From Verrucomicrobiota bacterium (GTDB taxonomy: Bacteria; Verrucomicrobiota; Verrucomicrobiia; Limisphaerales; UBA8199): a DNA stretch of 64,000 nt. The notes under the pieces are model-generated. The model was not told where the DNA came from and did not search any database. It worked only from the letters and a program-made list of their open reading frames with translations. The translations under genes and the position numbers were made by a program. Positions 15,320 to 33,459 of the stretch are shown here, piece by piece. Location: NCBI GenBank assembly GCA_035358715.1, contig DAOPPX010000003.1:14300-78299 (forward strand), in the 5' to 3' direction. The stretch's first letter is position 1; each line of letters opens with the position of its first letter.

Positions 15320-15396
15320 GCGCGAGTAGCTCAATTGGATAGAGCGTCGGCCTCCGGAGCCGAAGGTTGAGAGTTCGACCCTCTCCTCGCGTACCA
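15320..15396 (+). tRNA. tRNA-Arg(CCG)
   Basis: gcgcgag acceptor stem, D arm gctc/gagc, anticodon arm tcggc-ctCCGga-gccga, T arm gagag-ttcgacc-ctctc, encoded CCA. Confidence 0.97.
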
Positions 15397-17020: not shown

Positions 17021-17692
17021 TCAAGCGGTTTGGGTTTTCAGGATGTTGCGGACGGTCGCCGGATACCATTGCCCGCCGTTGCGGGTGGCAATCCCCCGCC
17101 TGTTCAAGCAATCACAAATCCCCCGAAGGGTCTGAACGCCCGCCGACTTGATTTCCTGAATGATGGGAAACACCTTGGCGGCAAAGTCAGCCTTGGCGGT
17201 CTTGTTCGCCACGGCCATTGCGGCCACAGCCTTTTGGGGATTGGGTGTTCCCAATTGTTTGCCGGTGGCTTTGAGGGCGGCCAACGCTTTTGTCGTTCGT
17301 TCGCTAATCAGTTCACGCTCCCGTTGCGCCAGCAAAGCCAGAACCCCTATCGTAAAGCGGTCACACCCCGCAGCGTCGCACGCGATGAAATCCGCTCCGC
17401 TGTTTTGGAGGCGTAGCAAAAACTCAGCATTTCGCGCCAGCCTGTCCAGTTTAGCGATTACCACCGTGCCCTTGGATTTCTTGGCGTATTCCAGTGCCGC
17501 CGCCAGTTGGGGGCGTTCATCTGATGTTTTCTTGCCGGTTTCCACTTCGGAAAACTCCATAGCCAAGACCCCGCCTTGGCTTTCAACAAACCGCCGAACC
17601 GTCTCTTTCTGTGCCGCCATACCATTGCCGTCCAGCCCTTGCATTTTTGTGCTCACTCTGTAATAGCCGATGTAGATTTTCATTATGGACAA
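17021..17692 (-). CDS. Serine recombinase (resolvase/invertase family)
   Basis: YYRVST (catalytic Ser), ERPQLAAAL, VIAKLDRLAR, ERELISERT; C-terminal 'LNRRGIATRNGGQW' DNA-binding part. Confidence 0.93.
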   Translation of the reverse strand: MSIMKIYIGYYRVSTKMQGLDGNGMAAQKETVRRFVESQGGVLAMEFSEVETGKKTSDERPQLAAALEYAKKSKGTVVIAKLDRLARNAEFLLRLQNSGADFIACDAAGCDRFTIGVLALLAQRERELISERTTKALAALKATGKQLGTPNPQKAVAAMAVANKTAKADFAAKVFPIIQEIKSAGVQTLRGICDCLNRRGIATRNGGQWYPATVRNILKTQTA

Positions 17693-18072: not shown

Positions 18073-18999
18073 TTGGCCGGGTGGTTTTCCTTCCACGTCA
18101 CCGCAGCCACCTTGGAAGAGGTTGCCCCCCATTTCGCCACAACTACTGAAATCGTTTGGAAGGTTCCAACCAACCAAGTGCCGAAGCGGTTATGGATATA
18201 CGGGATAGGGCCTCACGTCTTTTCAGCAGCGACAATTTCAAACGCCGTCGTTCTGGCAGGGTTTCAACAGAAGGGATTTCCGAAGCCGTCAGCAAAGGCC
18301 ACGGTCATTTGGGATAGAATTGCTGGCAGCACCGTTGGTGAGCCGCGTCCCCCCTATTTTGCTCTTACGCCGAAACGTGGGGCGATTCAGTATGACATTG
18401 GGGACCGCTGGCCGGATGCGCCCAACGAAATCTTGGCGGACCGGGCCGCCGTTGAATACGCATGGGATTGTCTTGCTCGGCTCGGCATAGACCGAGCGCA
18501 GTTCGTGAAAACAAACATCGCCAGTTTCGGCGTTGCTTTCCCGCGCCAGATAGATGGAATCCGATTCCAAGATGATTCCGAAGGCTTTTCATTCCAGCAA
18601 TACGGCAAGGACCGAAAACTGCGTTGCTTTTGCCTGACGCTTCCAACACTCGAACGCGTGAAGGAGGACACGACTGCCAGCCCGCAGGAAATCATCGCCG
18701 CCATTCGGGCGTTCAAGGTTCCGATAATGCCAAACGGGGAAGAAGCCGACTACTTCGCCAGAGTCAAAGCTATGTCGAAAGCCAAGAGGCTCACGATTAC
18801 AAAACTGTCGCTCTACTACGGCGAAGGAACAATTGGAGAGACACCGCCTGAAAATGAACTGCCGAAGGCTGTAACGCCGGTTGCGTATTTGGAAACCACC
18901 GCCGACTTTGGCACCAGCAACGCACCCCTGACGCTCGCTGCCCCCATCCTTTCCTCTGACGTGAGGCGACTTCTCCAGACGAAACACGGGCGCAAGTGA
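18073..18999 (+). CDS. Hypothetical, probably secreted protein
   Basis: 308-aa ORF; in-frame upstream NPIRALTILLAGWFSFHVTA looks like a signal peptide; start codon uncertain (TTG used). Confidence 0.55.
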   Translation: MAGWFSFHVTAATLEEVAPHFATTTEIVWKVPTNQVPKRLWIYGIGPHVFSAATISNAVVLAGFQQKGFPKPSAKATVIWDRIAGSTVGEPRPPYFALTPKRGAIQYDIGDRWPDAPNEILADRAAVEYAWDCLARLGIDRAQFVKTNIASFGVAFPRQIDGIRFQDDSEGFSFQQYGKDRKLRCFCLTLPTLERVKEDTTASPQEIIAAIRAFKVPIMPNGEEADYFARVKAMSKAKRLTITKLSLYYGEGTIGETPPENELPKAVTPVAYLETTADFGTSNAPLTLAAPILSSDVRRLLQTKHGRK

Positions 19000-19103
19000 A
19001 TACGTATCCATTCCTCAGCGCCGGGATGGACCGGGTATTGCGAACGGGTGGGGGGTGGTCCGCAGGGAGCGCAAAGCGCTCATATCCAGAAGTTGCGCAA
19101 TTC

Positions 19104-19352
19104 TTAGTGGCGTTTTGTGAGTTGTCGGTTCTGTTTGTCCAACTCCCGTTTCCTGCGTTCTGCGGCTTGGTGCTTGCTCAGCACGGACCGCAACCGAGCC
19201 GCCTTCTCCTTGTAGCCGTCAATCTGGATATTCAGTCGGTCGGCTCGGCCATCGGCTTCGTTAAGGTAGGGAGCGAGCGTGGCTTCAAGTTGGGCGAGCA
19301 AAACCTCAAGGGCCGCGAGGATTTTGGTGGGCTGGTAGGCGTTATCGGTCAT
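19104..19352 (-). CDS. Small coiled-coil hypothetical protein
   Basis: 82 aa, helical and charged; overlaps upstream ORF by ATGA. Confidence 0.5.
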   Translation of the reverse strand: MTDNAYQPTKILAALEVLLAQLEATLAPYLNEADGRADRLNIQIDGYKEKAARLRSVLSKHQAAERRKRELDKQNRQLTKRH

Positions 19353-19627
19353 TTTGCCCTCCCGTCTGACTGCGAGCCGGATGGCGTGGTCCTTGGCTTG
19401 CTAGCCAGCCAGCGTTTCAGCTTCTCCATCTCGGCGTCGTTGCGTCGGTGTCTCTCGGTGGTGCGTTGCTTGGCGTCGTCAATGATAGCAGTGGCCATCC
19501 TCTCGATGCGGGCGGCTCGCTCCTCAGCGGAGCCAACTGCGTCGGTTTTTTGGGTATCATTCATCTTTCGGTTCTCTTTCTCCTTTAACGGCGGGTCATT
19601 CCGCCACTGAGTATAAATACCGGCCAC
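19349..19627 (-). CDS. Small hypothetical protein
   Basis: Charged helical ORF coupled to 19104-19352; real start may be MNDTQK (~19563). Confidence 0.45.
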   Translation of the reverse strand: MAGIYTQWRNDPPLKEKENRKMNDTQKTDAVGSAEERAARIERMATAIIDDAKQRTTERHRRNDAEMEKLKRWLASKPRTTPSGSQSDGRAK

Positions 19628-19791: not shown

Positions 19792-19821
19792 TGTTTACCT
19801 CTGTGGTGGCATAATGGAGGG
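19792..19821 (+). repeat. Left arm of 30-bp inverted repeat flanking polymerase-like gene
   Basis: tgtttacctctgtggtggcataatggaggg; 29/30 match to reverse complement of 21228-21257. Confidence 0.9.
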
Positions 19822-19862
19822 TAGTAGATGTAGAGAGAAAAAGATTACTTGGAGTTACAGCC

Positions 19863-21206
19863 TCACCTGACCACCACGGCAACACCGAACTGCCGAACAG
19901 CGTTTTGTTGGATGAATGCCTTGACCTTGTCGAGTTTGCCCGTGATGTCGTGGTCATCCCGTTCCGCGAACACGCCAACTCCATCATACTCGTAAGCCAA
20001 TGTCAGCCCCAGACCATCAGCAAAGCCGTAAAGGGCTGGGTCGAGCATCAACGGCCCTTCGTATTCTTCCGTGATGAGCCTGCCAGTGATACGTCGGTCC
20101 TCCATCGCGGTCCATACTCTGGCCATCTCCGGAAATCGTCTTTGGAACCACGCCTCCAACCTTCGGTTGTCCGTCCGGTTGGTTCGGCCATCGGTCCTCC
20201 GTTTGTATTGTCTCGCACCATTCAGCCACGAGTTGAGGCAGTCCTTGAAATCTGCTCTTGGCGTGGTGATACCGGCTTCCCTGACAATCGCGTCCCGCGG
20301 GTCTGTATCGTGGTCGGTGAAAAGGCCGGTCCATTCCCGATGCTCCCTTTCCAAGTCAACCCGGTTGACCGCCACGCCGAGTTTCGCGTCAATGGCCGCG
20401 GCTTCGTTGGTATAGAACTCCCACAGCAATCGGCCAAGGAAAGTCGGGTGACAGGCTCGGACGTCCAAGGTCGCGACGTAGGGCCTGCCACGGAAAAGAG
20501 CGAACTGCCGGTATTTACTGGAGAGGCCAACGAACTCGTGATAGATGCGGCCTTCCTTAATCTCTAAGTTACCAAAATCCCGCCTCACGATGGCCAGCAG
20601 ATGGTGAAGGGCGGAGTTGAAACGTCCCGGCTCCTCCCGTTCGTCTCGCCGTAGTTGTGCGAGCACCGCATCCACGTCGAACTCCACCGAGCGATTGAAG
20701 CCGTCAATGATTTGCTTGATTGGCTCCTCGTAAGCCTTCAGCGTCATCTTACGCTTGGAAATGGCCACCTGATTTCGTCGCCGGGTTTGCGGGTCCTTCA
20801 GCAAATGGTAGAGCCACTGAAAGATGCCACCGGTCACCAGCCTGCGGCCCACGTCCGTAATTGCGAAGTTGCGGCATTCGCCCTCTGCGAACGCGTTTGC
20901 TGGTGGCCGATACGGAGTGAAGGTGAGCAAGCCAAGGTCCCTGAGAGCGTCGCGGTAATGCGTGTGCGAGTGCCGGAATGACCGAAACCGGCTTTCGATG
21001 TCCCTGTAGTCCCAAGTCACGGGCTTGCCATCGTTCCGTTCCACTGCGGCGTCAATCGCTCGTAGCCAGTATTGAGCTGTGTTGATGGCCTCCGGCTTCG
21101 CTTGGAAGAGAGGATGCTTGATGAGCAGGTCAAAGAGGTCCTTGCTTACCTTGACCCTGTCCCAAACGCGATAAGGTGAGTTGTCTGGTGCTTGACCATT
21201 AGCCAT
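19863..21206 (-). CDS. wHTH + minimal PolA/T7-RNAP-superfamily (TV-Pol-like) putative replication protein
   Basis: GRIYH pre-motif, motif A-like VATLDVRACHP, motif B-like RADFKDCLNSWLNG, 'WFQRRFPEM', motif C-like LAYEYDGVGV; N-terminal wHTH-like segment. Family assignment is by motif order only. Confidence 0.6.
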   Translation of the reverse strand: MANGQAPDNSPYRVWDRVKVSKDLFDLLIKHPLFQAKPEAINTAQYWLRAIDAAVERNDGKPVTWDYRDIESRFRSFRHSHTHYRDALRDLGLLTFTPYRPPANAFAEGECRNFAITDVGRRLVTGGIFQWLYHLLKDPQTRRRNQVAISKRKMTLKAYEEPIKQIIDGFNRSVEFDVDAVLAQLRRDEREEPGRFNSALHHLLAIVRRDFGNLEIKEGRIYHEFVGLSSKYRQFALFRGRPYVATLDVRACHPTFLGRLLWEFYTNEAAAIDAKLGVAVNRVDLEREHREWTGLFTDHDTDPRDAIVREAGITTPRADFKDCLNSWLNGARQYKRRTDGRTNRTDNRRLEAWFQRRFPEMARVWTAMEDRRITGRLITEEYEGPLMLDPALYGFADGLGLTLAYEYDGVGVFAERDDHDITGKLDKVKAFIQQNAVRQFGVAVVVR

Positions 21207-21227
21207 TCATTTACCCTAAACTATACT

Positions 21228-21257
21228 CCCTCCATTATGCCACCACAAAGGTAAACA
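21228..21257 (-). repeat. Right arm of 30-bp inverted repeat (promoter position of polymerase-like gene)
   Basis: ccctccattatgccaccacaaaggtaaaca; on the minus strand contains TGGCATAAT (extended -10-like) about 25-30 nt before the start codon. Confidence 0.88.
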
Positions 21258-21272
21258 CCATCCAGCCGCACG

Positions 21273-21299
21273 AAAAACCCCGAACCGAAGTCCGGGGTC
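21273..21299 (-). terminator. Rho-independent terminator
   Basis: Minus strand accccggac-TTCG-gttcggggt followed by TTTT, after the coiled-coil/wHTH gene. Confidence 0.8.
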
Positions 21300-21320: not shown

Positions 21321-21725
21321 TTACGCTGCGGCCTTCATCCCGTATTTGCCATCGGCCAACGCGAACACTGCCTTGGCTCCGGTGGACTTCTTCTTCAGTA
21401 CGTTCTTGATTTTCCACGACGTGAAGGCATCGCCGACTGCCGCAATGATTTCGTCAGCCGTCAGCGGCTTACCCTTGGCAGTGAGCACTTCGGCAATCTT
21501 GGTCTCAGCCTTTGGCTTCATCGGTTGCGGCTTCCACTCCGGGTCCAGTTGTCGGACCTCGGCGTCGAGGGCCACCAGTTCCGCCCTCATCTCCGCGTAT
21601 CGGTCTTTAAGGGGCTGGGCCAGAGCGACCCGCTGCTGGTTCAAGGCTTGGATTTTCGCGTTGATGTCGGCCAGTGCCGCTTGGGCGTTTTTGCTTCCAG
21701 TTCGGTCTACTGATATGTTTTTCAT
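21321..21725 (-). CDS. Coiled-coil + winged-helix DNA-binding protein (H-NS/Lsr2-like architecture)
   Basis: MKNISVDRTG... 134 aa: N-terminal heptad helix, Pro-rich linker, Lys-rich wHTH-like C-terminus; paralog at 31716-32126. Confidence 0.7.
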   Translation of the reverse strand: MKNISVDRTGSKNAQAALADINAKIQALNQQRVALAQPLKDRYAEMRAELVALDAEVRQLDPEWKPQPMKPKAETKIAEVLTAKGKPLTADEIIAAVGDAFTSWKIKNVLKKKSTGAKAVFALADGKYGMKAAA

Positions 21726-21793: not shown

Positions 21794-22906
21794 CTAAAAC
21801 GTGAGCCGGTTGGCCATCTTCCGCATATGCTCCCGGTTCAAGTGGCCGTAGGTTTTCCCGATGAGCACGCCGCCATCCTTGTGCCCGACCCACTTGGCGA
21901 TGGTCATATAGTCAATGCCCGTCATCACGCAGGTTGAGATGAAGTAGTGGCGGCACAAATGAAGGGTGAAATCCGGCAACCCCACAACCCGGCGAACCCC
22001 TTCAACCATTTTCTGAAACGACTGAACGGCGGTCTTTGTCCGGTGCGGTTTGCCCAAACGGTATGACGGGAAGAGATACGGAACCCCCTGAATCGCTTTG
22101 GCCTTCATACACAGCAGGTGGTTTTCCAAATTGCGGCTGAAGTCAACGCGACGGCTTTCAAAGTTCTTTGTCGTGTCCCCCTGAAACACCAATTGCCGGT
22201 TTTGCCAATCCACATTTTCCCATTTCAGATTCGCCACTTCGGATTTACGCCCACCTGTGAACATTAAAAGCAGGAGGAAGTCGGCAAACTGTTCCCCTGT
22301 AATGGGGTGGTTTCGCAGGGCTTCGGTTCCAATCCTGAGAAGGTCATCCGTCGAGAACAACCTTCGCTCTACGGACTTCACCTTTAACGGCGTGATACCG
22401 TCGAACGGCAGCTTCTGGATGTATCTTTCCGTTCTCGCCAGCTTCAACACCGCCCGAAGGGCTTTGACGTGATGATTGGCCGTAGTCGGCGACAACCCCC
22501 TTTCGAGCATCTTCCCGCGATAGGAGAGGATTTGACGCGACGTGATTTTGCTGATTTTCATGTCCGCCCCCAAAAACTTTTCCCAGTGCTTCAGGCAATT
22601 GTCTTCACGAATCGCCGACACCTTGGACCTGCCCGACACCTTCCGGTAATGCTCACGGAACGTTTTGAAATCCGGCGCTGAACGCGTGCTGGCGATTTCT
22701 CCGTCCTTGATTCCCTTCAACACGTCATACATCGCTTTGACGGCTTCCGTTCGGCTGGCTGCGCCGTTCAACCGGATGCGGTTGTTCCTTTTGATTCCGG
22801 TTTCAGGGTCAACCACCATCGCCTGAACGTAGAAGGAGCCGTTTCGCTGCCACAGCCCGCGGACCCTTCGGCGTGAACCGTCGAATACCTTTTGGAATGA
22901 CTTCAC
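21794..22906 (-). CDS. Tyrosine integrase (element 1)
   Basis: TGGRKSE (R), TTKN (K), HLCRH (HxxR), WVGHKDGG...KTYGH (H, Y); adjacent to att. Confidence 0.96.
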   Translation of the reverse strand: MKSFQKVFDGSRRRVRGLWQRNGSFYVQAMVVDPETGIKRNNRIRLNGAASRTEAVKAMYDVLKGIKDGEIASTRSAPDFKTFREHYRKVSGRSKVSAIREDNCLKHWEKFLGADMKISKITSRQILSYRGKMLERGLSPTTANHHVKALRAVLKLARTERYIQKLPFDGITPLKVKSVERRLFSTDDLLRIGTEALRNHPITGEQFADFLLLLMFTGGRKSEVANLKWENVDWQNRQLVFQGDTTKNFESRRVDFSRNLENHLLCMKAKAIQGVPYLFPSYRLGKPHRTKTAVQSFQKMVEGVRRVVGLPDFTLHLCRHYFISTCVMTGIDYMTIAKWVGHKDGGVLIGKTYGHLNREHMRKMANRLTF

Positions 22907-23014: not shown

Positions 23015-23060
23015 CCTCCGGAGCCGAAGGTTGAGAGTTCGACCCTCTCCTCGCGTACCA
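23015..23060 (+). repeat. att duplication of tRNA-Arg 3' half (internal att)
   Basis: cctccggagccgaaggttgagagttcgaccctctcctcgcgtacca, identical to 15351-15396; no tRNA 5' half upstream. Confidence 0.95.
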
Positions 23061-30545: not shown

Positions 30546-30729
30546 ATATGGTAGTGAGTTTTGGTTTTAGTTTTTTCCCTCATTGTATCGGCTCTCCCAA
30601 GAGGACGGGTGTGCCAGCGCCGCATTTCGCAAATGGCCTAATTTCAGTGGATTCATAAGGGTGAGGCTTAGCGGAGAATGATTACCTTTCCGGTGGTTGG
30701 CAGGGGGCACATCGGATAAACTGCGCTGG

Positions 30730-31701
30730 ATGAATGCGTTCGGAAAGCCCTACGACCTGCCCTATGACGATTGGGACCAAGAGAAGGTGGGGCCGGGTTT
30801 TTACCGCTTGCTCGCAGAGCACCCCGTTTTCAATCGCGAGAAAAAGGCCATCAGCGCCGCCCATTCGTGGCTGAACGAAATTGCCGCCGGCCAACACGCT
30901 AACGAAGGCAGAAACGTGACGGTCGGCTACAAGACCATTCAGGACCACTTCCGAAAGTTTTCCCAATCGCACGCCGCCTTCATTCGAGCTCTCAGTCAGT
31001 ATCGTCTGGTCGACATCAGCAAAGTCGAGAGAAGGACCCGCTCGTTCGCACTGACGGAAGCCGGATGGCGACTCTTACAAGAGGGAAACTATCGTTGGCT
31101 TCATTTGCTGCTAACGGACCCAAAAACGCGCAGGCGGAATCAGGTGGCAATCGCCAGACGAAAGCTGAGGCGCACCACCTACGCCGACCCGACACGGCGA
31201 GCGATTGAGGAATTCCGGCACAACGTGACGTTCGACCGAGCCGGACTCCTTAAACAGTTGCGGGTGGACAACTCACGGGTAGGGAGGACCGCCGATATGC
31301 GGCGCAATTTCGTTATCCACCCGCTGCTCGCCTTCGCGACACGCAAGTTTTGTGAACTAAAAGAAAGGCGTGGCGCCATCTACCATGAGTGGTTTTCCCT
31401 CCCTTGGCACTTCCGGCGCTTCGCTTCGTTCAAGGGGAGGCAATACATCATGCCCTTGGAATGTCCGAAAGAGCAGTTGTGCCAGTTCTGCCCAGCCCTA
31501 TGCGCCTACGGAGAGAGCTTGGGGTTGGCGCTCGTTTACGATTACGAAAGCGTGAGCGTGTTTGGTGACATGAACGACTCGAAATTGCTGAACAAGTTAA
31601 GGCGGGTCAAAGCGTTTATTCGGCACCAAACCTGCGAAACCAGCGCCCAAGCCAAGAACCATGACTGCTTGGAGAACCCCGGCGAATTGCCGGGGTCGTG
31701 A
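30730..31701 (+). CDS. Degenerate paralog of the polymerase-like protein (palm largely deleted)
   Basis: Shares WLxxLLxDPxTRRRNQVAIxxRK, GxIYHE and KLxxVKAFI with 19863-21206. Motif A TLD becomes PLE, motif C YDG becomes YES, and the region between them is mostly missing. Confidence 0.75.
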   Translation: MNAFGKPYDLPYDDWDQEKVGPGFYRLLAEHPVFNREKKAISAAHSWLNEIAAGQHANEGRNVTVGYKTIQDHFRKFSQSHAAFIRALSQYRLVDISKVERRTRSFALTEAGWRLLQEGNYRWLHLLLTDPKTRRRNQVAIARRKLRRTTYADPTRRAIEEFRHNVTFDRAGLLKQLRVDNSRVGRTADMRRNFVIHPLLAFATRKFCELKERRGAIYHEWFSLPWHFRRFASFKGRQYIMPLECPKEQLCQFCPALCAYGESLGLALVYDYESVSVFGDMNDSKLLNKLRRVKAFIRHQTCETSAQAKNHDCLENPGELPGS

Positions 31702-32192: not shown

Positions 32193-33305
32193 CTAAAACG
32201 TGAGCTTACTTGCCATCTTCTGCATGTGCTCGCGGTTCAAATGCCCGTAGGTTTTACCAATCAGCACACCGCCGTCCTTGTGGCCAACCCACTTGGCGAT
32301 TGTCATGTAGTCAATGCCCGCCATCACGCAGGTTGAGATGAAATAGTGACGGGTTAGGTGAAGGGTGAAGTCCGGTAAGCCCACGGCACGGCGAACGGAT
32401 TCGACCATTTTCTGGAAGGACTGAACGGCAATGCGTGTTCGATGGGGTTTTCCCAAGCGATAAGACGGGAACAGATAGGCCACCCCTTGAAGGGCTTTGG
32501 CCTTCATGCACAGCAGGTGGTTTTCGAGGTTGCGGCTGAAGTCAACACGACGGCTCTCAAAGTTTTTTGTCGTGTCCCCTTGGAACACGAGTTGCCTATT
32601 TTGCCAGTCAACGTTTTCCCATTTCAGATTCGCCACTTCTGATTTGCGCCCACCCGAATACATGCACAGCAGCAGAAAATCTGCGAACTGCTCGCCGGTT
32701 ATTGGGTGGTTCCGCAGAGCATCGGTCCCAATTTTCAGAAGGTCCTCAGTACAGAACAACTTCCGCTCCACGGATTTGACCTTGAGGGGCGTGATGCCAT
32801 CGAACGGCAGCTTCTGAATGTATTTTTCCGTTCTCGCCAACTTCAGCACCGCCCGCAAAGCCTTGACGTGATGATTGGCCGTGCTCGCCGACAGCCCCCG
32901 TGCGAGCATTTGGCCGCGATACGCGAGAATCTGCCGCGGATTGATTTTGCTGATTCGCATGTTGGCTCCCAGAAACTTTTCCCAGTGCTTCAGGCAATTG
33001 TCCTCACGAATCGCCGACACCTTGGACCTGCCCGACACCTTCCGGTAATGCTCGCGGAACGTTTTGAAATCCGGCGCTGACCGCGTGCTGGCGATTTCTC
33101 CGTCCTTGATTCCTTTCAGCACACCATACATGGCCTTGATGGCCTCCGTTTGGCTGGTTGCCCCAGTCAGCCGGATGCGGTTGTTCTTTTTGATTCCGGT
33201 TTCAGCGTCAACCACCATCGCCTGAACGTAGAAGGAGCCGTTCCGCTGCCACAACCCGCGTATTCGTCGGCCTGAGCGGTCGAATACCTTTCGGAAGGAA
33301 TTCAC
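32193..33305 (-). CDS. Tyrosine integrase (element 3)
   Basis: 370 aa, same length as and closely similar to 21794-22906; catalytic R, K, HxxR, H, Y all present. Confidence 0.96.
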   Translation of the reverse strand: MNSFRKVFDRSGRRIRGLWQRNGSFYVQAMVVDAETGIKKNNRIRLTGATSQTEAIKAMYGVLKGIKDGEIASTRSAPDFKTFREHYRKVSGRSKVSAIREDNCLKHWEKFLGANMRISKINPRQILAYRGQMLARGLSASTANHHVKALRAVLKLARTEKYIQKLPFDGITPLKVKSVERKLFCTEDLLKIGTDALRNHPITGEQFADFLLLCMYSGGRKSEVANLKWENVDWQNRQLVFQGDTTKNFESRRVDFSRNLENHLLCMKAKALQGVAYLFPSYRLGKPHRTRIAVQSFQKMVESVRRAVGLPDFTLHLTRHYFISTCVMAGIDYMTIAKWVGHKDGGVLIGKTYGHLNREHMQKMASKLTF

Positions 33306-33413: not shown

Positions 33414-33459
33414 CCTCCGGAGCCGAAGGTTGTGGGTTCGACCCCCGCCTCGCGTACCA
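33414..33459 (+). repeat. Outer att duplication of tRNA-Arg 3' half
   Basis: cctccggagccgaaggttgtgggttcgacccccgcctcgcgtacca; 42/46 identical to the other copies, all differences in the T-stem. Confidence 0.93.

Follow-up and report, generated by a model that had tools for sequence, protein, structure and literature searches.

Locus and Box Copies

The subject of this analysis is a 64,000-nucleotide (nt) stretch of a Verrucomicrobiota bacterium genome (assembly GCA_035358715.1, contig DAOPPX010000003.1, positions 14,300–78,299), called the window below, and in it a small integrative element with a TV-Pol-type polymerase gene encoding 447 amino acids (aa). The gene (19863–21206, minus strand) is flanked by two copies of a 30-bp sequence, termed here the box. 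Copy 1, the right arm (21228–21257, minus strand), reads TGTTTACCTTTGTGGTGGCATAATGGAGGG and occupies a promoter-like position directly upstream of the gene; copy 2, the left arm (19792–19821, plus strand), reads TGTTTACCTCTGTGGTGGCATAATGGAGGG, is inverted with respect to the gene and is directed into its 3′ end. As an inverted repeat, the arms are identical at 29 of 30 positions, with a spacing of 1406 nt, and the only plausible gene between them is that of the 447-aa protein. In these respects, an earlier interpretation made from the letters alone (the sequence-only reading) proved exact. With up to three mismatches allowed, the arm sequence has two matches in the window, compared with none in 100 shuffles, and these two are the only matches in the whole 5.5-Mb assembly. 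With only two copies there, the box was rejected as a general host promoter.

The right arm includes TGGCATAAT and ends 21 nt ahead of the ATG. The leader between the two (21207–21227, minus strand) is devoid of C; the first C is found at +26, within the coding sequence. On the other side of this arm is an intrinsic terminator (21273–21299, minus strand), located 3′ of a gene for a 134-aa protein. The terminator is credible because its hairpin has a predicted folding energy of −23.9 kcal/mol (z −3.3) and is followed by a T-run (UUUUU in the RNA); as proposed earlier, it would credibly keep transcription from upstream out of the polymerase gene. The left arm, which faces the gene, begins 41 nt beyond the polymerase stop codon (about 40 in the earlier estimate). 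It is followed by a C-poor tract (19822–19862, plus strand) that abuts the stop codon and has its first C at +27.

The polymerase gene is transcribed, 27–43% of its 31-mers being present in each of four metatranscriptomes. An antisense gene driven by the left arm (open reading frame 19905–20567, plus strand) was considered and rejected because the frame is a by-product of GC-rich codon usage; the same frame is open, and even longer, in relatives with a direct second box. An Rfam search of the window element, of L001 (relatives' loci are designated by L numbers) and of the loci of distant relatives found no RNA families except tRNAs.

Conservation of the Box

Homologous loci from genomes and metagenomes were compared (n = 37). 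A flanking inverted repeat was found at none of them (0/37); the best inverted match between the 300 nt upstream and the 300 nt downstream never exceeded shuffled controls. The box itself, TGTTTACCTTTACGGTGGCATAATGGAGG[G/T]AG, is present in every fetched locus that has an upstream flank and a protein at least about 51% identical. In all, 29 copies were counted in 18 distinct elements, the polymerases of which are only 51–80% identical and the flanking DNA of which is unalignable. The sequence-only reading had associated a lack of flanking inverted repeats in homologues with a one-off local duplication; the lack was indeed found, but the duplication is not a one-off, the box being conserved across the subfamily.

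The box consists of block I, TGTTTACCTTT, five variable nucleotides and block II, G.CATAATGGAGG. Positions 1–5, 7, 9, 11, 17, 19 and 21–27 are invariant, variation is mostly confined to positions 12–16, and the edges are sharp. The box is asymmetric and has no dyad symmetry. Several candidate identities were rejected. RNAalifold pairs blocks I and II in a stem, but the single-stranded DNA folds with only −1 to −2 kcal/mol (z +0.1 to −1.5), which does not support a hairpin inside the box. Sigma-54, sigma-28 and extracytoplasmic function (ECF) sigma factor promoters, as well as site I of serine recombinases, seemed, when judged by eye, to have the wrong spacing or symmetry. The box had no matches among IMG/VR viral contigs and its core string was found in no papers; it appears to be undescribed, and the window shows a lineage-specific inverted arrangement of this conserved box.

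One copy is always located upstream of the polymerase gene in the sense orientation; its distance to the start codon is 13–35 nt in some elements and about 230–250 nt in one clade. A second copy is found downstream of the gene in 11 elements, nine times as a direct repeat (L001, L002, L008, L010, L066, L070, L073, L075 and L077) and twice inverted. The direct copy is followed by a resolvase gene in L001, L002 and L008 and by small genes in the other six; in L066, L010, L073 and L075, it begins 1–10 nt past the polymerase stop codon. The inverted arrangement is restricted to the window element and L065, the protein of which is 80% identical, and the inverted arm is retained in both at 28–30 of 30 positions.

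Derived changes tend to be common to both copies of an element: GT in both copies of the window element, C6..TA in both copies of L008 and CGTAAT in both copies of L077. The distance between boxes is 1.0 within elements, as opposed to 2.05 between elements (permutation p = 0.01). These shared changes would fit a single element-encoded factor that reads both copies.

Distant relatives, with 25–30% protein identity, do not have the box. About 95 nt ahead of the gene, they possess a TATAAT-like hexamer and, after it, a G-run, for example TATAAGTGGGGGGTGGGG. A side observation concerns the freshwater-metagenome relatives in this range of identity (L020:2672–2950, L003, L021, L025, L026, L036–L038 and L047), which share a conserved upstream non-coding block of about 150 nt. 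The block includes …CGCACAAGAGGCTCTTTGGCTTACGAGGACGGGCCGCCAAGGCGTCCGGG…GGGCTGAAAGCCC…, then the TATAAT-like hexamer and the G-run, and corresponds to no Rfam family.

C-Free Tract and Clade-Specific Leader

All 29 copies of the box, including the inverted ones, are followed in their own sense by a stretch free of C. The first C after the box occurs at +5 to +64, mostly near +30, and the C content of the 40 nt after the box is 7%, compared with 28% in the 40 nt upstream. Across the element, only 0.3% of 40-nt windows contain two or fewer C residues. The sequences of the tracts are unconserved; that of L065 differs from that of the window, yet C is absent from it until +33. Judging by these comparisons, the box and the tract were flipped as one unit, and the inverted copy is evidently under selection, because both the window element and L065 keep the arm at 28–30 of 30 positions and keep the tract C-free despite its differing sequence.

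In one clade (L001:5790–5975, as well as L002, L008, L010, L070 and L077), the box is separated from the polymerase start codon by a non-coding leader of about 190 nt. The whole 230-nt box-headed leader has 76% DNA identity and is more conserved than the protein. Its predicted structure comprises a 9-bp helix formed by CCUCCCGGC with GCCGGGAGG directly before the start codon, and an inner helix with three compensatory pairs. The leader is absent from the window element and has no match in Rfam; it is a candidate translational control RNA.

The 447-aa Polymerase

No match to the 447-aa protein was found in Pfam (even at E ≤ 1), PHROGs, NCBIfam, PADLOC or PDB sequences. In particular, the protein does not belong to the canonical DNA_pol_A model (PF00476) at the sequence level, and neither profile matched PDB sequences. 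A tblastn search of phage and plasmid records returned no relatives of the protein, and the polymerase had no match among defence systems. The family nevertheless comprises 184 representative clusters among 1.8 billion proteins. The AlphaFold model of the protein, built with 34 homologues, has a predicted local distance difference test (pLDDT) value of 89 and a predicted template modelling (pTM) score of 0.82.

A Foldseek comparison of the model with the PDB gave as best matches only family-A DNA polymerases (T7 DNA polymerase, Taq, Klenow and the apicoplast polymerase), with a probability of about 1 and E-values from 3e-3; the matches are limited to the polymerase domains of these enzymes. 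Among viral models, the top matches are ‘putative DNA polymerase I’ proteins of about 400 aa from uncultured phages (E 1.5e-9, template modelling score 0.6). Phage RNA polymerases come no higher than 27th; their scores are weak, and many DNA polymerases precede them. The earlier suggestion of a minimal PolA-like enzyme is thus upheld by the fold and by the alignment of the catalytic residues with those of Klenow. A T7-type single-subunit RNA polymerase was rejected, since the protein has only 447 aa, compared with about 800–1100 in such enzymes, and its nearest structures are DNA polymerases.

A set of 55 diverse relatives, with identities down to 20%, shows no variation at R220, D248 and K321; R250, E288, N329, G330, E383, D408 and G409 are near-invariant in the same set, D408 being present in 90% or more. 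An alignment of Klenow and CcPol was rebuilt from the supplement of PMC10061031 and compared with the family profile using hhalign. The similarity is weak (global P = 3.6e-4), yet it is collinear: D248 falls on D705 of Klenow, R317 and K321 on R754 and K758, N325 on F762, N329–G330 on Y766–G767, and D408 on D882. Motifs A, B and C are, according to this profile alignment, present in order. R220 is located within a predicted short β-hairpin, and the next segment aligns locally with NLQNIP...SADYSQIELR of Klenow. As for the RxxxK motif, K321 is invariant, and position 317 is R or K in many relatives and L, M or E in others. Antiparallel helix pairs (118–151 and 178–208) precede the palm in the model, and the N-terminal part of about 150 residues contains a winged-helix-like unit (helices 67–73 and 81–90, hairpin 94–116). 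There is no nuclease domain; the 447 residues make up a stand-alone minimal family-A core of thumb, palm and fingers.

The TV-Pol family was described as minimal family-A-like polymerases of 400–600 aa, with an extra N-terminal domain in a subset of members (Iyer, Abhiman & Aravind 2008, PMC2579912). Verrucomicrobia and Planctomycetes are among the groups in which TV-Pols occur, and the elements that carry them have a gamma-delta-type resolvase, a lambda-type integrase or both; the hallmark residues of the family are a β-hairpin Arg, two Asp and an RxxxK motif, and its predicted function is that of a primase-polymerase (PMC2579912). The window protein shares with this family the 400–600-aa stand-alone core, the extra N-terminal domain, the β-hairpin Arg, the two Asp and the Lys of the fingers helix; the Arg of RxxxK is conserved only in part. 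The order of integrase (or large serine recombinase), 134-aa protein, polymerase and resolvase genes recurs in more than 10 elements. The 447-aa protein fits the TV-Pol family in architecture, motifs, fold and gene neighbourhood, which is an assignment other than by direct match to named members; the family has no Pfam or NCBIfam model. The gene class is, therefore, already described and not new. The sequence-only reading knew of no described system with this layout, and that statement has to be given up for the gene and its resolvase and integrase neighbours, which match TV-Pol elements (PMC2579912). The account of the family in that paper does not include a conserved 30-bp box, a two-copy layout or a C-free tract.

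A Putative Promoter/Operator Cassette

The interpretation that we prefer, and to which we give even weight for and against, is that the arms are two copies of an element-specific promoter/operator cassette, the second of which fires antisense into the polymerase gene in this lineage. The cassette would be specific to one subfamily of small tRNA-integrating elements of Verrucomicrobiota-type bacteria, the core of which comprises an integrase, a coiled-coil/winged-helix protein, a TV-Pol and a resolvase. It would consist of the invariant block I TGTTTACCTTT, five variable bases, an extended −10-like TGGCATAAT-GGAGG and an initial sequence of about 30 nt without C. Copy 1, behind the terminator and 21 nt ahead of the ATG, would be the promoter of the polymerase gene. 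The cassette would presumably be used by the host RNA polymerase, and block I may be bound by an element-encoded winged-helix protein, either the 134-aa protein or the N-terminal domain of the polymerase. Copy 2 would normally serve as promoter of the following transcription unit (resolvase or small genes). In the window's lineage, the cassette and its C-free tract would have been reversed in place, with an antisense start 70 nt past the stop codon and transcription through the polymerase gene. The likely effect is that the replicase is lowered or gated by convergent transcription or antisense RNA, as in the control of plasmid rep genes.

Several observations point in this direction. In the window, no candidate promoter other than copy 1 is located after the strong terminator and before the ATG, and the direct second copies of the relatives point at the next gene. 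The box holds TGnCATAAT, TGGCATAAT is present in 27 of the 29 copies, and in a consensus scan the left arm is rated a TG-extended site of the sigma-70 type. In one clade, the box heads a 230-nt leader with conservation above that of the protein, as would be expected if it marks an mRNA start. Block I is probably an operator because it is located where the sigma-70 spacer would be. Of the three ideas about the arms offered by the sequence-only reading (recognition sites or origins for the encoded enzyme, an autoregulatory promoter with an antisense promoter, and recombination sites), the promoter pair appears to fit the comparative data best.

Other observations weigh against the cassette. The invariant block I sits at the position of the sigma-70 spacer, and the conserved box does not extend to the −35 position. 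Both copies of L077 have CGTAAT, which places G at the normally essential −11 position of sigma-70 promoters. Gene conversion could equally yield the co-variation of the two copies within elements. Finally, to our knowledge, no function in ordinary promoters has been established for a C-free tract.

A Possible Polymerase Start Site or Transcript-Primed Origin

The strongest alternative, possible and in our judgement on the unlikely side, is that the box is the TV-Pol's own initiation site or a transcript-primed origin. In one version, the winged-helix domain would dock on TGTTTACCTTT, TAAT would melt, and synthesis would start from GGAG, as at a T7-type promoter or primase site. In the other, a host transcript would form a stable R-loop on the G-rich, C-free tract and be extended by the family-A-like polymerase. 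In either version, the two convergent copies of the window would start synthesis on opposite strands.

The layout of the box, TAAT and then GGAG, resembles that of T7-type promoters. The box is confined to these elements, with two copies in 5.5 Mb, has sharp edges and lies beside a predicted primase-polymerase. The C-free, G-rich tract after all 29 copies (7% C versus 28% upstream) and the TATAAT-like hexamer with G-run of distant relatives would also agree with a start site, as would the G at −11 in both copies of L077, the unconserved −35 and the lack of any other replication gene in the element. An ordinary promoter would leave four of these points unaccounted for: the unconserved −35, the G at −11 in L077, the tract after every copy and the restriction of the box to the vicinity of a predicted primase-polymerase. 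For TV-Pols, a primase-polymerase function has been predicted (PMC2579912). Primase activity is proven for the related CcPol-MP, which favours initiation with a purine opposite template C; the site it prefers is located in a putative origin, flanked by the replication genes on one side and the gene of the serine recombinase on the other (PMC7581432).

Features of ordinary promoters speak against this alternative. In 9 of the 11 two-copy elements, copy 2 is directed at the downstream gene, copy 1 is the sole promoter candidate for the polymerase gene, and the box heads a conserved mRNA leader in one clade. Furthermore, Foldseek places DNA polymerases far above T7-type RNA polymerases, and no SSB (a binder of single-stranded DNA) or helicase partner like those of CcPol-MP was found. 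The specific proposal that the box and the C-free tract together constitute a dedicated TV-Pol initiation signal, be it a de novo T7-promoter-like site or an R-loop origin, is drawn by analogy and seems to us less likely still.

The Host Element and Its Sibling Island

The element is a 7.66-kb island delimited by identical 46-bp repeats of tRNA-Arg(CCG) at 15351–15396 and 23015–23060; the former, on the plus strand, is the attL site and corresponds to the 3′ part of the tRNA gene. A 91% identical copy of the att repeat at 33414–33459 closes a second, decayed island. Read in the sense of the polymerase, the first island contains genes for a tyrosine integrase, the 134-aa protein, the 447-aa protein, two small proteins, a 308-aa protein on the opposite strand, a small serine recombinase (PF00239) and two further proteins of 65 and 219 aa. 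A domain scan found no replication gene in the element besides the polymerase.

The integrase (21794–22906, minus strand) has matches to PF00589, PF13102 and PF24624. The 134-aa protein (21324–21725, minus strand) is kept in all close relatives with 58–68% identity. Its conservation is seen in an alignment of 10 homologues, and its model (pLDDT 85) shows a 50-residue coiled-coil helix and a C-terminal winged helix; its Foldseek matches are generic winged-helix proteins. This protein is a candidate binder of block I, and the H-NS-like architecture of the model suggests a possible regulator or silencer of the element.

The small serine recombinase, or resolvase (17021–17692, minus strand; PF00239), confirms the earlier assignment of such an enzyme to this element. 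It has 73–75% identity to the resolvases of L001, L002 and L008, which directly follow the second box; in the window, it is located 2.1 kb from box copy 2, with cargo between. The cargo (18073–19627, between the inverted box and the resolvase) comprises 92-aa and 82-aa genes and the opposite-strand 308-aa gene. These genes (19104–19627 and 18073–18999) have no family match and no counterpart in the relatives. From this comparison, the cargo is lineage-specific and placed exactly where relatives carry box copy 2 and then the resolvase.

The decayed sibling locus (30681–31701, plus strand) begins with a degenerate box in which block I (TGATTACCTTT) is retained and the TAAT block is gone. It is followed by a truncated 334-aa paralogue of the polymerase (30697–31701, plus strand) that is devoid of residues ~250–390, which include motifs A and B. 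As had been read from the letters, the paralogue is oriented opposite to its integrase (32193–33305, minus strand). Its 3′ end directly meets the terminator of the adjacent homologue of the 134-aa protein, and the right junction of this copy has no arm. The paralogue looks like a dead, inverted copy.

Some variants were observed among other loci. In L074 (1788–3344), a 518-aa large serine recombinase (PF07508) takes the place of the tyrosine integrase before a core of 143-aa protein, polymerase and resolvase genes; the core module evidently goes together with more than one kind of integration enzyme. L072 (108–1679) encodes a 523-aa protein that joins the SAM-like N-terminal part of an integrase (PF13102) to the C-terminal two-thirds of the polymerase, with 65% identity over 67% of the query. 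The protein arose by a deletion fusion or else is an assembly chimera. One Logan contig (L064) ends 34 nt past the polymerase stop codon, just short of the inverted arm, and contigs L059, L060 and L063 all begin at one identical base within the integrase. These ends may be assembly breaks that reflect repeats: the arms themselves, or the integrase that the tandem islands carry in duplicate.

Other Explanations of the Arms

The inverted copy might be a neutral, functionless leftover of the rearrangement that brought the 2.1-kb cargo between the polymerase and the resolvase. The arrangement is indeed seen in one lineage only (the window element and L065), and the cargo genes 19104–19627 and 18073–18999 are missing from relatives. 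However, both the arm and the C-free tract are kept in two elements with 80% protein identity, the surrounding non-coding DNA of which is unalignable, and we consider a leftover very improbable.

An invertible switch, listed in the sequence-only reading, has to be abandoned almost entirely. Here the arms would be crossover sites at which the 1.4-kb polymerase segment is flipped through homologous recombination or by the serine recombinase. One element does combine a small serine recombinase with a near-perfect inverted repeat of 30 bp, and the paralogue of the decayed sibling is reversed relative to its integrase, but the right junction of that sibling is without an arm. Only one orientation was found in 19 contigs from independent samples with an identical protein, though contigs drop rare variants, and the contigs of four DNA runs likewise show one orientation. 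The copies are direct in 9 of the 11 two-copy elements, where a recombinase would delete rather than invert, and the box lacks the dyad symmetry of hix, gix and res site I. Moreover, flipping the segment between inward-facing identical promoters would leave the expression of the polymerase unchanged.

Lastly, an insertion sequence-like unit with the 447-aa protein as its single gene would account for the 1466-bp length, the one open reading frame, the 30-bp terminal inverted repeats and the promoter in one end, but it can be practically dismissed, given the single genomic copy, the lack of a target-site duplication and a protein with a polymerase rather than a transposase fold, and it is effectively refuted by the relatives that carry the same sequence as direct repeats at a constant place in one element backbone.

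Comparison with Known Systems and Significance

The only biochemically studied relative of the window protein is CcPol-MP of the staphylococcal cassette chromosome SCCmec, a primase for which a purine is the starting nucleotide (Bebel et al. 2020, PMC7581432; Rice 2023, PMC10061031). The system of CcPol-MP and the helicase Cch2 resembles the one described here in that a truncated family-A polymerase is carried by an integrative element with a serine recombinase. The specific cis site of that system, a preferred start site with purine priming that is flanked by replication genes and recombinase gene, can be likened to the box. The window protein differs in having an N-terminal winged helix in place of the exonuclease remnant of CcPol; CcPol-type proteins are reported only from Bacillota, and their profile similarity to the window protein is the weak one given above. 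With respect to a PolA–SSB type of system, no helicase or P-loop gene was found in the 7.66-kb element, and no OB-fold partner was identified at the sequence level, at which the neighbouring small proteins have no family match.

In phage lambda, one factor, CII, acts on the same short box at several promoters, PRE, PI and PaQ, one of which is antisense. The antisense RNA CopA of plasmid R1 and RNAIII of pIP501 exemplify antisense or convergent control of plasmid rep genes. The proposed cassette would be similar to the CII-type sets in having boxes for one factor and an antisense member that damps a key gene. In contrast to the CII sets, the box of the window is 30 bp long, almost invariant and located in the spacer/−10 region rather than around −35. 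The antisense copy, moreover, lies beyond the 3′ end of the gene, unlike the CII-type sets and plasmid antisense control.

Transcript-primed origins that serve family-A enzymes include ColE1 RNA II with Pol I, the primary origin of T7, and mitochondrial LSP–CSBII with Pol gamma. The likeness of the box to these, an analogy only, consists in a promoter directly followed by a G-rich, C-poor non-template strand near a family-A-type polymerase.

If the box is only a promoter and operator, it would provide tidy, ordinary control of a replicase gene on an integrative element. If it is a dedicated initiation signal of the TV-Pol, the 7–10-kb islands would each replicate on their own, with a single protein as replicase and a defined origin of 30 bp, and the convergent pair of the window would form a two-strand origin bracketing the replicase gene. 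TV-Pols have been predicted primase-polymerases since 2008, and no cis-acting site had been known for them. A sharply bounded, element-specific 30-bp box with a C-free signature supplies the exact DNA for transcription, binding, priming and replication assays, and the convergent variant found in the window can distinguish an orientation-dependent action, that of a promoter, from an orientation-independent one, that of an origin.

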